From an uncultured Actinomycetes bacterium (lineage in GTDB: Bacteria; Actinomycetota; UBA4738; HRBIN12): a stretch of 64,000 nt of DNA. A program made the position numbers and the translations under genes. Under the pieces are notes generated by a model. It ran no database searches. It was not told the DNA's origin and saw only the letters and a list, made by a program, of their open reading frames with translations. Location of the stretch: the NCBI GenBank assembly GCA_963780015.1, contig CAWAAO010000014.1:333336-397335 (forward strand), read 5' to 3'. Below, piece by piece: positions 9,923-22,029 of this stretch. Within the stretch, counting starts at the first letter, position 1; every line of letters starts with the position of its first letter.

Positions 9923-11080
9923 ATGAGGCAGCTCAGCATCCTCGGCTCGACGGGGTCGATCGGGACCCAGGCGCTCGACGTCGTGCGGCGCAATGCCGAC
10001 CGGTTCAAGGTCGTCGGGCTGTCTGCCGCCGGCATGAACCAGGAGCTGTTCGTCGGCCAGATCCGGGAGTTCCTGCCGCCGCTGGTGGCGATCGCCGACG
10101 AGGAGGCCGCCCACGACATCCAGGAGCACCTCGGGGGGCTCAAGGGCGTCGAGTTCATCGTGGGGCCCGATGCCGCCGAACAGCTCGCCCGCGACACGGA
10201 AGGCGATCTCGTCCTGAACGCCCTCGTCGGCAGCGCCGGGCTCGGCCCGACCCTCGCGGCCCTGCAGGCGGGCAAGACCCTTGCGCTGGCCAACAAGGAG
10301 TCGCTGGTGGTGGGTGGCGAGCTGGTGATGGACCTCGTCAAGGGCGAGCCCGAGCGGCTGTTGCCCGTCGATTCCGAGCACGCTGCGCTGGCGCTGGCGA
10401 TGCGTCACGAGCGGCGCGAGGACCTCAAGCGTGTCGTGATCACCGGTTCCGGCGGCCCGTTCCGTGGCTGGACCCACGCCGAGCTGCAGCGTGCGAGTCT
10501 CAAGGAGGCCCTGCAGCACCCCGTGTGGGCGATGGGCCCCAAGATCACGATCGACTCCGCAACGCTGATGAACAAGGGTCTCGAGGTGATCGAGGCGCAC
10601 TATCTGTTCGACCTGGAGTACTCGCAGATCCACGTGTTGATCCACCCCGAGGGCGTCGTGCACGCGATGGCGGAGTTCCGCGACGGCAGCCTGCGGGCGG
10701 AGATGGCGACCGCCGACATGCGGTTGCCGATCCAGCTCGCGCTCGCCTGGCCCGAGCGCCTGCCGACCGGGGTGGAGCCGGTCCCGCTCACCGAGCGCAG
10801 CCTCAGCTTCGAACCGGTCGACCGCGAAGCCTTCCCCGCGGTCGACCTCGCATACCGAGTCGGCGGTCTGGGGCTCACGTTCCCGGCGGTCATGAACGCC
10901 GCGAACGAGGTCGCCGTCATGGCATTCCTGGAAGGGAAGATCCCGCTCACCCGCATCGTCGACCTCGTGCAAACGGTGGTGGACGAACACGAGCCCGGCT
11001 CCATCGTCTCGGTCGTGAACATCGAGCGTGCCGACGCCTGGGCGCGGCACCGAGCGGCCGAGATCATCGACGAGCGGTAG
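9923..11080 (+). CDS. dxr: 1-deoxy-D-xylulose-5-phosphate reductoisomerase
   Basis: Motifs MRQLSILGSTGSIGTQALDVV, LANKESLVVGGE and LPVDSEHAALA. This is the 3' part of the artefactual 909-aa ORF 8351..11080. GTG 9920 is an alternative start. Confidence 0.95.
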   Translation: MRQLSILGSTGSIGTQALDVVRRNADRFKVVGLSAAGMNQELFVGQIREFLPPLVAIADEEAAHDIQEHLGGLKGVEFIVGPDAAEQLARDTEGDLVLNALVGSAGLGPTLAALQAGKTLALANKESLVVGGELVMDLVKGEPERLLPVDSEHAALALAMRHERREDLKRVVITGSGGPFRGWTHAELQRASLKEALQHPVWAMGPKITIDSATLMNKGLEVIEAHYLFDLEYSQIHVLIHPEGVVHAMAEFRDGSLRAEMATADMRLPIQLALAWPERLPTGVEPVPLTERSLSFEPVDREAFPAVDLAYRVGGLGLTFPAVMNAANEVAVMAFLEGKIPLTRIVDLVQTVVDEHEPGSIVSVVNIERADAWARHRAAEIIDER

Positions 11081-15932: not shown

Positions 15933-17165
15933 CTATTCGGCGTCGAACGGCAGGACGGCCTCGATGCCGTCCGTCGCCGCATCGGCCGCCCGGCGTTGCG
16001 GAACATCGGGTGCGCCGGTCGTGACCGGGACGCGCGCCGTCCGCAACCACGACACCACGATGTCGATCCACACGAGGTTGCGAGCCAGGACGAGCCAGCC
16101 GACCCAGGCCGCCGGCACGGCTGCCTGCTCGCGCCACACGAGCGCGACCACGCCGGTGAGGACCACCGCGACCGTCGCGACGCCGGCGGTGTGACGCTCG
16201 TCGCGATCGCCGTCGAACGCCAGCGCTGCGAACGGCAGGACCCACGCGGCCATCTGGAGTGAGAACACCGGCGAGAAGACGACGAGGGTAGCGACGGCCG
16301 CGAGCGCGGCCCCGCCGACGGGATCGCGGGCGTCGCGCGAGGCGCGGCGCCAGATCCATGTCTCACACGCGATCAGAGCGGCGAACAGGATCGCCTTGAC
16401 CGCCAGGGTGGCGTGGCCGATGCGGATCGCATCGGCCTCCCGATAGGGCTCGCCGCGGCCGAGGATCCACAGCAGATCGCCGACGAGGCTCTCCGCGTGC
16501 CATCCACGGGTATCGCGGAACGACAGCACCTGGAACGGTCCCTTCGGACCGCCGGTGAGGTACCACCATGCCCCGATCACGAGACAGACCGCGACCCCGA
16601 GGAGCAGGCCGCGCCGCGCCCGACGGAACGCAAAGATCGGCACCAGCACCAACGGCCAGAGCTTGGCCATCACGGCGAGACCGAGTGCGACGCCGCCGAG
16701 TTCCTCGCGCCGCCGGTGGAGCAGCGCCAGGGACCACGCGGCGAGGGCGACCGCGACGAGATCGAACCGCAGGTACAGGAACGACAGCAGCGGCAGTCCG
16801 AGCAGCAGGTAGGTGGCCGACTGCCGCCGTCCCCAGCCCCACGCCAGCGCAACGGCCGCGGCCATGTCGGCGAGAAACGCGACCAGCGCGATCCGCCGGG
16901 CGGCGTCCGCCACGTCGCCCGAGCCGAGGGCCCGATCGAACAGCGTCTGCACGGGCATGAACTCCACCGGGAAGTTCCGATAGGCGGTCGCGGGCGAGGT
17001 CGCGATGCGGTTCGCCCGGGCGACGTCGGCGTCCGCCGGTGCCAAGGAGGCGGCCCGGGCGAGGATCACGACCAGCACCAGGATGTGGAGCGCCACGAGG
17101 CCGCCCACCACCGCGCTCGTCGGATGCTGCAGGAAGCCGGCGCGTTCGGCGGGCGTGTGGGACAT
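15933..17165 (-). CDS. Polytopic membrane protein, candidate DUF2029/GT87 (PimE-like) glycosyltransferase
   Basis: At least 9 hydrophobic helices. Start set at MSHTPAERAG (ATG 17165), because the upstream 119 codons of ORF 15933..17522 are antisense to the neighbouring gene. The functional call rests on overall resemblance only. Confidence 0.6.
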   Translation of the reverse strand: MSHTPAERAGFLQHPTSAVVGGLVALHILVLVVILARAASLAPADADVARANRIATSPATAYRNFPVEFMPVQTLFDRALGSGDVADAARRIALVAFLADMAAAVALAWGWGRRQSATYLLLGLPLLSFLYLRFDLVAVALAAWSLALLHRRREELGGVALGLAVMAKLWPLVLVPIFAFRRARRGLLLGVAVCLVIGAWWYLTGGPKGPFQVLSFRDTRGWHAESLVGDLLWILGRGEPYREADAIRIGHATLAVKAILFAALIACETWIWRRASRDARDPVGGAALAAVATLVVFSPVFSLQMAAWVLPFAALAFDGDRDERHTAGVATVAVVLTGVVALVWREQAAVPAAWVGWLVLARNLVWIDIVVSWLRTARVPVTTGAPDVPQRRAADAATDGIEAVLPFDAE

Positions 17166-17208
17166 GTCGTGCTCAACCGTAGCGGTCGCGGGTGCCGATG
17201 ACTCGGAG

Positions 17209-18162
17209 ATGCGGGGGATCCGGACGGTCGCGGCGGTCGCCGCCTGCTGCATCGCCGCGGGGGCGCTCGCGCTGCCGGTGCAGGCGATCCCGGTTCCGGG
17301 CACGACCTGTGACGTGTTCCCGTCGAACAACGTCTGGCATCTCGACGTGTCGAGGTTGCCGACACACCCCAAGTCCGACGTCTGGAAGAAGGCGATGCGC
17401 GCACGCGCGACGTTCCTGCACCCGGACTTCGGCCCGCCTGCGTACGGGATCCCGTTCGATGTCGTCGATGCCGCCCACCCCGACGTGAGCGTGCACTTCA
17501 CGTACGCGAGCGAAAGCGACAAGGGCTCCTATCCGTTCGGACCGGACACGCACGTCGAGGGCGGGTCCGATCGGCACGCGATCATGATCGACCGCGACAC
17601 CTGCACGCTGTATGAGCTGTATGCGGCGCGGTGGAACGGTGGCGATCCGCGGGCCGGCTCCGGCGCGATCTTCGACCTGGCCGACAACGCGCTGCGGCCG
17701 GCGGGCTGGACCAGCGCCGATGCGGCCGGCCTCTCGATCTACGCGGGACTGTTGCGCTACGACGAGGTCGCGGCGGGCTCGGTCGACCATGCGATCCGCG
17801 TCACCGCGGCGTGCACGTACGACGCCTATCTCTGGCCCGCCCGCCATGCCGCCGGCACGAACGATCGCCGTTGTCCGCCGATGGGGGCGCGGTTCCGTCT
17901 GAAGGCCGGGTTCGACGCGAGCCGGTTCGGCCGGCAGGCGCGCGTCGTGATCCGCGCGATGAAGCACTACGGGCTCATCGTGGCCGACAACGGCAGCGAC
18001 TGGTACTTCCAGGGGACGGTCGATCCCCGATGGACCTACTCCTTCGTCGACCAGCTCAAGCGGATCCCCGCCAAGGCGTTCCAGGCGGTGGACGAGCGCG
18101 CCTGCCGCGTGGCACCGAACAGCGGCGCGTTCGCGACCGGCCCCGGTTGTCCCGCGGCCTGA
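17209..18162 (+). CDS. Secreted hypothetical protein
   Basis: ATG 17209 is followed by signal peptide MRGIRTVAAVAACCIAAGALALPVQA. Conserved-looking blocks DRHAIMIDRDTCTLYELY and GLIVADNGSDWYFQG. I do not recognise the family. Confidence 0.7.
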   Translation: MRGIRTVAAVAACCIAAGALALPVQAIPVPGTTCDVFPSNNVWHLDVSRLPTHPKSDVWKKAMRARATFLHPDFGPPAYGIPFDVVDAAHPDVSVHFTYASESDKGSYPFGPDTHVEGGSDRHAIMIDRDTCTLYELYAARWNGGDPRAGSGAIFDLADNALRPAGWTSADAAGLSIYAGLLRYDEVAAGSVDHAIRVTAACTYDAYLWPARHAAGTNDRRCPPMGARFRLKAGFDASRFGRQARVVIRAMKHYGLIVADNGSDWYFQGTVDPRWTYSFVDQLKRIPAKAFQAVDERACRVAPNSGAFATGPGCPAA

Positions 18163-18171
18163 CGAAACTGC

Positions 18172-18734
18172 CTAGCGGACGATCGCGAGGAAGTTCTCCA
18201 CGATCCGGGGTCCTTCGGGCGTCAGGATGCTCTCGGGGTGGAACTGGACGCCGAAATGCGGCAGCTCGCGGTGTTGCGTGCCCATGACGAGCCCGTCCTC
18301 GGTCCACGCCGTGAGCTCGAGTTCCGCCGGCAGGTCGTCGCGCTCGAGGACCAGCGAGTGGTATCGACCGGCCTCGAACGGCACGCTGACGCCCGCAAGG
18401 ATCCCCGCGCCCTCGTGGTAGACGAACGACGCCTTGCCGTGCATCGGTGTGGTGCGATCGACCGTGCCGCCGGCCTCCAGCCCGATCGCCTGGTGGCCGA
18501 GACAGACGCCGAGCACGGGGGTCGTCGCCGGGAGCTGCTCCAGCAGCGCGGTGAAGCAGCCCGCGTCGCGTGGGTGCCCCGGCCCCGGCGACAGGACCAC
18601 GGCGTCGGGCTTGAGGCGAACGAGCTCCTCGGCGGGGCGGTCATCGGACTTCACGACCGTCGTGGCGCGGCCGAGACTCTCGATCAACTGCACGAGGTTG
18701 TAGGTGAACGAGTCGTAGTGGTCGACGACCAGGA

Positions 18735-18738
<4 letters not shown>
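18172..18738 (-). CDS. trpG: Anthranilate synthase component II (glutamine amidotransferase)
   Basis: Motifs MILVVDHYDSFTYNLVQ, GVCLGHQAIG, RYHSLV and FGVQFHPESI. ATGA overlap with the trpE stop. Confidence 0.9.
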
Positions 18739-20228
<1,490 letters not shown>

Positions 20229-20259
20229 CCTCTCGTACGGGTGGGCAGATACGCGTGAA

Positions 20260-20280
20260 CCCCGGACCGCGGGTCCGGGG
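20260..20280 (-). promoter_or_regulatory. GC-rich hairpin in trpE 5' leader (candidate attenuator terminator)
   Basis: On the minus strand: CCCCGGACC-CGC-GGTCCGGGG, a perfect 9-bp stem with a 3-nt loop. It lies 31 nt upstream of the trpE ATG and is followed by UUCACGCGUAUCU, a weak U tract. Confidence 0.6.
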
Positions 20281-20310
20281 CTCGTGGGGCGATGCGACGA
20301 TGCGATCGCG

Positions 20311-20379
20311 TCAGGCGCTCGGCGGCGCCGAGCTCCACGAGCCCGCGCACCACCACCAGGTCCTCGACATGGTCGCCAT
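20311..20379 (-). CDS. trpL: Putative trp operon leader peptide MATMSRTWWWCAGSWSSAPPSA
   Basis: A 22-codon ORF on the trpE strand with three tandem TGG codons (20350-20358) plus a fourth Trp, ending at TGA 20311-20313, upstream of the hairpin. It is not in the supplied ORF track because it is too short. Confidence 0.65.
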   Translation of the reverse strand: MATMSRTWWWCAGSWSSAPPSA

Positions 20380-20445
20380 CAGAGGCGGGATGGTCGCACG
20401 CGCGCCTCGGTCGCGTCAACGGCCGTCGCTTGGTACGGTCGTTCG

Positions 20446-22029
20446 ATGCGTCGACTCACCGTGCTCTGCGCCCTGTCGTTGTTCGCCGCGCTCGCGACCG
20501 TGCCGGCCCCCGCCGGTGCCGCGCGGCCGGCCGCCGACCGGATCGCGAACGTGCCCTGGCGATCGGCCGGCCGCGCGAGCGCGCCGACCCCGGACGGCGC
20601 GTCGACCGTGCGTCACGATGGCGCCGCGCCGTCGGCCGCGGGCCCGCGCGCGACACGTCCCGCGCCGAGGCCGACGCAGGAGCGCGTCGGCACGCGCACG
20701 CCGACCGCCGACGGTCTGGACGCCGATCTGATGGGGCCGAACCCGCTCACGAGCCCCGGCGATCCCACCGGCGCGACCGGACCGACGAGCGTGGTGGCCG
20801 CCGTGAACGTGCGGGTCGGCGTCTACGACCGCACCGGCGCCGAGCTGCTCGCCCCCTTGCGACTCCGGTCGATGAGCGCCCAGCTCGCGGGTCTCAAGGA
20901 GACCGATCCGAAGGTCTTCTACGACGCCTACGACGACATGTTCGTCCTGACGTTCCTGGTCTATGACTCCTCGGAGGGCTACATCGAGGTGGTCACGATC
21001 CCGTCGGCGACGGCCGAGGACACGGGCACGTGGTGCCGCACACACATGGTCGGGGACCAGGTGCACAACGGCACGCACGAGTTCGCCGACTATCCGAGCA
21101 TCGGGTTCAGCGCCAACCGCGTCGTCGTCACCACGAACAACTTCGGGTTCAACAACGGGCCGTTCCGCTACGCGCAGGTGATCTCGATGCCCAAGGGGGC
21201 GCTGTACGACGATCCGACCTGCACCAAGACCGTGCCGATCAAGGTGCTCGCGGGGTCCAAGACCAAGAACCCCGACGGTTCGAAGGCCTTCACCCTGCAG
21301 GCGGCGCAGTCCGTCGGCGGTGCGCCCACCGATCAGTTCCTCGTCTCGCTGGAGCCGAAGGCCACGTCCGCGAAGCTCGTGCTGTGGCGGCTGCGGATCG
21401 TCAACGGCAACCTCACGGTCTCCAAGACCGCCGAGGCCGTGAAGCGGGTGGCGCTGCCGCCCTACGGATACCAGTGCGACAGCACGAACCAGGTGAACAC
21501 CTGGTGGGACACGGGTGATCTGCGTCTCACGTCGGCCTTCTACGACGCCGACACGAACCGTCTGTACGCCGCGACCGCCGTGGCCGGCAACGCCGGCGGC
21601 GGCCCCCAGGAGTCCGTGATCCGCTGGTACGAGGCCGCACCGAAGAACCGATTCGGCCGTTCCCAGGTGCTGCGGGAAGGCACGGTCGGCGCCGCCAACC
21701 ACGACGCCGCATGGCCCGCGCTGGCCACGAACGACGTGGGCACGCTGTTCATCGGGTACGCACGGGGCGGGCCGAGCGAGTGCCTCGGGATCTGGGCCGC
21801 AACGGTGCCGGCGGGCGCCGGCACGGCGGCGCAGACGTCGTTGATCGCCGCCGGGGGCGCCCGCTACGAGTTCGGCCCGGGCCTCGAGCGCTGGGGGGAT
21901 TTCAGCGCCGCCAACCGCGACCCGGTCATCGGCGCCGACGTCGCCATCTTCGGCGCGTTCGCCGATGACCAGGGGTCCTCGACGACCGATGCGTTCCGAG
22001 CGCACGTGGCCCTGCTGGCCGACGTCTGA
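20446..22029 (+). CDS. Secreted hypothetical protein (527 aa)
   Basis: ATG 20446 is followed by signal peptide MRRLTVLCALSLFAALATVPAPAGAA. A Pro/Ala/Arg-rich linker precedes a large globular region. I do not recognise the family. Confidence 0.7.
   Translation: MRRLTVLCALSLFAALATVPAPAGAARPAADRIANVPWRSAGRASAPTPDGASTVRHDGAAPSAAGPRATRPAPRPTQERVGTRTPTADGLDADLMGPNPLTSPGDPTGATGPTSVVAAVNVRVGVYDRTGAELLAPLRLRSMSAQLAGLKETDPKVFYDAYDDMFVLTFLVYDSSEGYIEVVTIPSATAEDTGTWCRTHMVGDQVHNGTHEFADYPSIGFSANRVVVTTNNFGFNNGPFRYAQVISMPKGALYDDPTCTKTVPIKVLAGSKTKNPDGSKAFTLQAAQSVGGAPTDQFLVSLEPKATSAKLVLWRLRIVNGNLTVSKTAEAVKRVALPPYGYQCDSTNQVNTWWDTGDLRLTSAFYDADTNRLYAATAVAGNAGGGPQESVIRWYEAAPKNRFGRSQVLREGTVGAANHDAAWPALATNDVGTLFIGYARGGPSECLGIWAATVPAGAGTAAQTSLIAAGGARYEFGPGLERWGDFSAANRDPVIGADVAIFGAFADDQGSSTTDAFRAHVALLADV

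Follow-up and report, generated by a model that had tools for sequence, protein, structure and literature searches.

A conserved tryptophan-codon leader and terminator-like hairpin upstream of trpE form a probable attenuator in an uncultured actinobacterial lineage

Does the DNA in front of an anthranilate synthase gene from an uncultured actinobacterium encode a tryptophan attenuator, and how might such an element work? We asked this of a window of 64,000 nucleotides (the whole stretch of DNA that was analyzed) from an organism known only from metagenome-assembled genomes. A first-pass annotation of the window had drawn attention to a leader ORF with Trp codons and a GC-rich hairpin upstream of trpE and had proposed a transcription attenuator. 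From sequence comparison and RNA folding models, we put the probability at roughly 75% that the region is a ribosome-mediated Trp attenuator of the trpL type controlling a two-gene trpE-trpG operon. It would very probably be an unannotated case of a design already described in Streptomyces and Corynebacterium, with no new principle. The presence of a Trp leader together with terminator and antiterminator pairings upstream of trpE is supported by conservation; for the mechanism, we infer where transcription starts, that the ORF is translated, that transcription terminates at the hairpin, how the element responds to tryptophan, how ribosome and polymerase are timed, and what the leader hairpin that we call H12 does. 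The features are listed in Table 1.

Table 1. Features of the trpE leader and the genes behind it, with positions counted from the first letter of the window.
Feature	Position	Strand	Remarks
-35 hexamer TTGACG	20414-20419	minus	TTGACN-N17/18-NANNAT in 65 of 65 aligned relatives
-10 hexamer GACCAT	20390-20395	minus	A2 and T6 conserved; 18-nt spacer; fixed placement in relatives
Leader ORF, trpL-like	20311-20379	minus	22 codons, MATMSRTWWWCAGSWSSAPPSA then stop; ATG at 20379, TGA at 20313-20311
Tandem Trp codons, UGG three times	20350-20358	minus	Codons 8-10 of the ORF; proposed regulatory codons
Segment 1, putative antiterminator 5' strand, also H12 5' arm	20335-20351	minus	Predicted to pair with 20287-20272
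Conserved leader hairpin H12	20324-20351	minus	20351-20339 with 20335-20324; 12 bp, one bulge, -20.1 kcal/mol
Window-specific hairpin GCUCGGC-GCC-GCCGAGC inside the ORF	20317-20333	minus	-13 kcal/mol; found by inverted-repeat search; not conserved
Segment 3, putative antiterminator 3' strand	20272-20287	minus	Whole terminator 5' arm plus CCAC flank
Terminator-like hairpin GAGCCCCGGACC-CGC-GGUCCGGGGUUC	20257-20283	minus	12 bp, -25.1 kcal/mol; 65 of 65 aligned relatives
Tail past the GGGG run, UUCACGCGUAUC	20248-20259	minus	Weak, interrupted U tract; first 3 nt (UUC) close the 12-bp stem
trpE, anthranilate synthase component I	18735-20228	minus	NCBIfam, Pfam and PDB matches
trpG, glutamine amidotransferase component II	18172-18738	minus	Start overlaps trpE stop

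The first-pass annotation held that the leader settles whether the downstream gene is trpE or pabB. The leader supports trpE but does not settle the matter; independent support comes from database models and structures. Among NCBIfam models, the best for the product is TrpE, with 482.7 bits (below its cut-off of 517.7), ahead of the PabB models, and the best PDB matches are mycobacterial TrpE (7bvd and 5cwa). The product contains the Pfam domains Chorismate_bind and Anth_synt_I_N. For the annotation of the downstream pair, the leader likewise favors trpE-trpG over pabB-pabA. In 78 of 80 related loci, trpE is followed on its own strand by a trpG-like gene. In the window, the trpE stop and trpG start overlap as ATGA (18735-18738, minus strand), a hint that translation of the two anthranilate synthase subunits is coupled. 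The true start of trpE is possibly the second ATG, at 20219: this position, as ATG or GTG, is the one conserved in relatives, with GAGAGG about 9 nt upstream, and the first ATG (20228) is TTG in one relative (L007).

The ORF of 22 codons at 20379-20311, with three tandem Trp codons and a fourth, which the first-pass annotation had reported, is exact on reading the minus strand; the fourth UGG lies at 20337-20335. For comparison, we searched with TrpE and obtained 80 loci from different species of uncultured Actinomycetota, with TrpE 71 to 93% identical. Absence of the ORF and hairpin from relatives had been named as evidence against an attenuator, and the opposite was found: 69 of the 80 loci have a leader ORF with Trp codons, about 21 codons long and 52 to 124 nt upstream of trpE, and the hairpin is present in every aligned leader. 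We aligned 65 leaders, and this alignment is the basis for the promoter, stem and codon statistics given here, which are inflated by shared ancestry.

At least two Trp codons are present in the leaders of 68 of the 80 relatives, and a single W occurs in one locus. The pattern is WWW in the closest relatives and W-x-W in more distant ones, with WW in three loci. In the alignment, the outer two UGG codons (the first and third) are invariant or nearly so and the adjoining codons vary; the middle position is TGG in 16 of 65 leaders and differs in the other 49. In 51 of the 65, the first Trp codon comes after seven others. One subclade (L029, L034, L040, L044, L046, L050, L056 and L076) has a longer, 27-codon leader ending in AWTWPSGSRGLWRPRAPGPPR and a stop, with a third, distal Trp codon and rearranged pairings. 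In L047 (positions 2830-2958), the W-x-W frame lacks an in-frame start after the promoter, and an ATG ATG lies one base out of frame; this fault may reflect an assembly indel in a long-read metagenome-assembled genome or a decayed leader.

The promoter-like hexamers in front of the ORF hold the same placement across the alignment. Variants of the -10 element among relatives include GACCAT, CACAAT and CACCAT, and an in-frame ATG or GTG follows the conserved -10 element after 5 to 10 nt in 64 of 65 leaders. Because this distance leaves no room for a Shine-Dalgarno sequence, the ORF would be leaderless or nearly so, and the arrangement fits a predicted 5' leader of about 4 nt or less. A strict consensus scan of the window for promoters and terminators found no match; such a scan is too strict for the GC content here, and the promoter and the tail of the hairpin were therefore established by conservation. 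The composite of promoter, start codon and in-frame TGG-(NNN)-TGG occurs a single time on both strands of the 64-kb window, at this locus.

The terminator-like hairpin is the second conserved element. The first-pass annotation had described a perfect 9-bp hairpin at 20280-20260, 31 nt before the trpE ATG. It is present, and its stem is actually longer: the core pairs CCCCGGACC (20280-20272) with GGTCCGGGG (20268-20260) across a CGC loop, and the full 12-bp stem joins 20283-20272 with 20268-20257. The core is separated by 30 nt from the leader stop codon and by 31 nt from the ATG at 20228. Across the 65-leader alignment, 90.6% of cells in the stem are paired, and base pairs change in a compensatory way, for example at columns 135-145 (GC in 21, AU in 16, GU in 15) and 128-152 (GU in 25, GC in 24, AU in 14), while the loop varies freely in both length and sequence. 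These compensatory changes and the many G-U pairs indicate that the structure acts at the RNA level and is specific to the strand of trpE. We also considered the palindrome as a DNA operator and rejected this on account of the G-U pairs and the variable loop. Given that the upstream gene is divergent, on the plus strand, and starts at 20446, the hairpin cannot be that gene's terminator.

The set of hairpins in the first-pass annotation was incomplete, as it missed H12, which starts within the last of the tandem Trp codons. In the alignment, 82.5% of H12 cells are paired, and the pair at columns 41-62 is GC in 27 leaders and CG in 21; RNAalifold independently recovers both H12 and the terminator-like hairpin. 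The hairpin GCTCGGC-GCC-GCCGAGC at 20333-20317, which had been listed instead, does exist in the window, but we rejected it as a family feature since it is absent from the conservation in the alignment.

A further pairing would connect the ORF with the hairpin. The 10-mer GGGCTCGTGG (20344-20335) is the exact complement of CCACGAGCCC (20287-20278). An inverted-repeat search picked out this pair as well as the main hairpin and the hairpin at 20333-20317. The first-pass annotation had noticed this complementarity (GGGCUCGUGG:CCACGAGCCC) and had described an overlap with the first 3 nt of the hairpin's left arm. The complementarity is real, but it forms the core of a 15-bp helix between segments 1 and 3 that overlaps the whole 5' arm. 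This predicted antiterminator helix, which is mutually exclusive with the terminator, has a calculated energy of -27.4 kcal/mol including loop closure, against -25.1 for the terminator and -20.1 for H12. Across the family, the 1:3 helix is 74.6% paired, with many unpaired cells; its core pairs (columns 45-51 with 125-131) are conserved, and compensatory changes occur at 52-124 (UA in 20, CG in 9) and 53-123 (GC in 26, CG in 7). Covariation, a check that the first-pass annotation had suggested, is therefore evident in H12 and the terminator stem, and to some extent in the 1:3 helix.

Taken as an attenuator, the locus would work as follows. Transcription from a sigma-A-type promoter (TTGACG-18-GACCAT) would begin at, or a few nucleotides before, the leader AUG, and the 22-codon ORF, with UGG at codons 8 to 10, would be translated as a leaderless or nearly leaderless message. 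Segment 1 (20351-20335) could pair either with segment 2 (20335-20324), giving H12, or with segment 3 (20287-20272), which is also the 5' arm of the GC-rich 3:4 hairpin (20283-20257), 31 to 40 nt before trpE. When charged tRNA-Trp is scarce, the ribosome would stall at the UGG codons with segment 1 exposed and the base of H12 melted; segment 1 would then capture segment 3 as it emerges, the 3:4 hairpin would be blocked, and RNA polymerase would read into trpE-trpG. When Trp is plentiful, the ribosome would move over segment 1, H12 would re-form behind it and re-sequester segment 1, segment 3 would pair with segment 4, and transcription would be stopped or reduced.

We modeled this switch by folding the RNA with the ribosome at different positions. 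At equilibrium with ribosome masks, the terminator is dominant in every modeled state, which implies that any switch must be kinetic, as in known attenuators. Because equilibrium folds cannot demonstrate such a switch, we used scans of truncated transcripts instead. For the truncated transcript of the window, predicted upstream capture of the terminator 5' arm amounts to -12 to -18 kcal/mol when the ribosomal A site is at or before the Trp codons, and it falls to about 0 to -4 kcal/mol when the ribosome is on the next 8 to 9 codons; a constrained-folding scan agrees with the model for codons +3 to +11. Once the ribosome reaches the stop codon, the model leaves segment 1 available again, and the antiterminator is thermodynamically favored over H12, so the Trp-replete branch, which ends in termination, depends on unproven timing. 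Across the family, the stalled position is more favorable than the mid-ORF position in 51 to 58 of 64 sequences, with p-values inflated by kinship. The MFE fold of the leader region in the window also pairs the Trp-codon stretch with the spacer at 20310-20288, a feature specific to this window.

The same constrained folds, for transcripts ending before segment 4, suggest that the wiring differs within the family. The terminator arm is predicted to pair with segment 1 in 30 of 65 sequences, those of the window's clade among them, and with segment 2 in 22 of 65, which corresponds to the classical, E. coli-like 2:3 wiring. A nearly palindromic stem core, CCCCGGG/CCCGGGG, makes the 2:3 pairing possible. 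The alignment contains no covariation for the 2:3 helix (columns 56-61 with 131-136).

The output of the attenuator is a point of doubt in this reading. As the first-pass annotation had remarked, the U tract is poor, with 4 U among the 12 nt of the tail in the window. In vitro, mycobacterial RNA polymerase needs a U tract, and NusG helps at suboptimal terminators (PMC3993855), which makes the efficiency of termination at the weak tail of the window uncertain and a Rho-assisted or other output possible. In such a scheme, the ORF would still sense Trp, stalling or release of the ribosome would lead to Rho-dependent termination or polarity or would alter the stability or translation of the mRNA, and the hairpin would serve as a pause site or structural element. 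The weak tail of the window clade and the U-tract requirement of the mycobacterial enzyme both speak for it. So does a precedent in Actinobacteria, since mycobacterial operons are attenuated by leaderless Cys-rich uORFs with no obvious terminators (bioRxiv 10.1101/834739; PMC1262725). These polycysteine uORFs resemble the element studied here, which is predicted to be leaderless, in being leaderless short ORFs, rich in cognate codons, upstream of a biosynthetic operon (bioRxiv 10.1101/834739); they differ in that cysteine is sensed and a conserved terminator hairpin is lacking (PMC1262725), whereas the window element has a conserved pair of putative terminator and antiterminator. We nonetheless consider a non-intrinsic output unlikely. 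The hairpin is always followed by a tail enriched in U and pyrimidines (over 12 nt in the family, U averages 0.43 where the background is 0.13, and pyrimidines 0.79 where it is 0.49), the helix sequestering its 5' arm keeps its place across the family as expected for an antiterminator, and the hairpin covers neither the Shine-Dalgarno sequence nor the start codon of trpE.

Some relatives carry the hairpin and not the leader, and these bear on what the hairpin does. Seven loci keep the hairpin without a Trp leader. In five of them (L013 and L016-L019), the hairpin follows straight after the conserved promoter, about 60 nt upstream of trpE, and neither the leader ORF nor H12 nor the segment-3 flank is present. 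In the other two (L032 and L061), a leaderless Trp-free ORF (MRHVEPRAHGPGFVRSMGARG, then stop) runs through the hairpin, and its TGA overlaps the trpE GTG. Three further loci (L009, L011 and L048) have neither leader nor hairpin. Persistence of the hairpin in the seven loci argues either that, by itself, it does not terminate transcription efficiently and constitutively in them, which also counts in favor of a non-intrinsic output, or that it has a second role. Given that it stays intact in lineages that deleted the leader, we propose a second, leader-independent role for the terminator hairpin and, along with it, an antiterminator strand that switched sides within the family between 1:3 and 2:3; we hold this combined proposal tentatively and regard it as possible but doubtful.

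The same loci could be taken to mean that the hairpin acts mainly in a role besides termination, such as that of a 5'-proximal mRNA stabilizer, a processing barrier or a protein-binding site, to which the Trp ORF was added in some lineages. The promoter-hairpin fusions and the Trp-free ORF running through the hairpin are what such a role would explain. The free loop and the covarying stem with its G-U pairs fit an RNA hairpin and not a DNA operator, and all 65 leader-bearing loci have a leader segment complementary to the 5' arm of the hairpin; this account is very unlikely in our assessment.

It is also conceivable that the small ORF encodes a functional peptide, instead of or besides sensing Trp, as with peTrpL of Sinorhizobium; a trans-acting Trp leader peptide has a precedent (PMC7968998). 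The peptide has a conserved R-x-G-S-x-S-P motif, which would be expected if its sequence mattered. Its seven N-terminal residues vary freely, however, and the conserved residues coincide with both arms of H12. At the pair in columns 41-62, the swap between GC and CG coincides with the peptide changes R to P and A to G, and the fact that these changes track the compensation of the base pair argues for selection on the RNA rather than on the peptide. Compensation in H12 thus implies that the conserved motif reflects RNA pairing and not peptide function, and we judge a functional peptide to be highly improbable.

That a chance open frame in GC-rich DNA lies beside an unrelated hairpin, for which one could cite the abundance of open frames at about 70% GC, the six copies of TGGTGGTGG in the window (0.32 expected) and a whole-region fold with a z of only -2.08 (5 of 200 shuffles fold as well), is effectively refuted by the recurrence of the arrangement in 69 of 80 species, where the spacing is fixed, the UGG codons are invariant and the stems covary. 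The five further copies of TGGTGGTGG, at 10305, 24786, 25383, 40102 and 40819, are all on the plus strand.

The ribosome-mediated attenuator that we favor can be compared with several known systems. The E. coli trpL attenuator, represented in Rfam as Trp_leader (RF00513), follows the logic proposed here, with Trp codons in tandem, helices that exclude one another, and a terminator ahead of trpE. The two differ in that the E. coli ORF is led by a Shine-Dalgarno sequence. They also differ in wiring. E. coli uses 1:2, 2:3 and 3:4 pairings; its segment 1 contains the Trp codons, and the stop codon falls between that segment and segment 2. In the window clade, segment 3 is predicted to be captured by the 5' arm of the leader hairpin (1:3), and the competing partner is on the 3' side of that arm. 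In an Rfam scan at E <= 10, the window element did not match the covariance model of the gamma-proteobacterial Trp_leader, and we obtained neither a Trp-leader family nor another relevant cis-regulatory family, only chance matches to miRNA models.

Closer parallels are found among Actinobacteria. Classical trp attenuators with double or triple UGG codons have been predicted for trp operons of Corynebacterium and Streptomyces (PMC1262725), and a trpEG attenuator of S. venezuelae is attributed to Lin et al. 1998 as cited in that source (PMC1262725). In S. lividans TK24, trpL1 (SLIV_27122; MFAHSTRNWWWTAHPAAH, then stop) lies upstream of a monocistronic trpE, and transcription start site mapping showed that its transcript is leaderless (PMC8079986). 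By back-translating the trpL1 peptide, we retrieved 49 Streptomyces loci, of which one was read and compared. In that locus, the -10 element is 6 nt before the ATG, WWW follows after 8 codons, a UUUUU tract is present, and an ORF segment, GGCGGCC, is identical to the terminator 3' arm. On the basis of this one locus, the Streptomyces and window elements are alike in being short actinobacterial ORFs, leaderless or predicted to be so, with 7 to 8 codons and then WWW, in having an ORF segment past the Trp codons that resembles the terminator 3' arm and complements the 5' arm, and in having a GC-rich hairpin shortly before the anthranilate synthase gene.

The differences from Streptomyces trpL1 are several. 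The stems are unrelated (GGCCGCC there, GAGCCCCGG here), and the peptides differ apart from WWW. Streptomyces has a clear UUUUU tract where the window has UUCACGCGUAUC. The stop codon is 3 nt past the antiterminator strand in Streptomyces, such that a terminating ribosome masks that strand, and 24 nt past it in the window. The window has in addition the conserved H12, placed so that it could re-sequester the antiterminator strand. Finally, the operon here is trpE-trpG, whereas trpE is monocistronic in S. lividans.

Going by published description, the trp attenuators of C. glutamicum and C. diphtheriae share with the window element a leader peptide with double or triple UGG and GC-rich antiterminator and terminator structures drawn from a complementary triple (PMC1262725). 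By the same description, they differ in controlling the whole trp operon and in having poly-U tracts.

The element described here would be a cis-regulator of anthranilate synthase in a widespread lineage of uncultured actinobacteria from soil and groundwater. The 65-sequence alignment represents a class of attenuator for which Rfam has no model, and a family built from it could help to annotate leaderless Trp leaders in genomes of high GC content. The element also adds a case to the debate on how transcription is terminated in high-GC Actinobacteria at hairpins whose U tracts are imperfect.

The neighborhood of the operon includes two other reading frames. A long plus-strand ORF (20113-22029) crosses the leader region; we rejected this extent, as the ATG at 20446, with a signal peptide encoded after it, is the plausible start. 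The resulting divergent gene of 527 amino acids (20446-22029, plus strand) has a signal-peptide-like N terminus (MRRLTVLCALSLFAALATVPAPAG) and no Pfam or NCBIfam match, and 27 nt separate its start codon from the -35 element of the promoter of the leader. On the other side, a 385-amino-acid ORF (17005-18162, plus strand) without a Pfam or NCBIfam match is convergent with trpG; it is maybe shorter than listed, and its N-terminal part looks non-coding.
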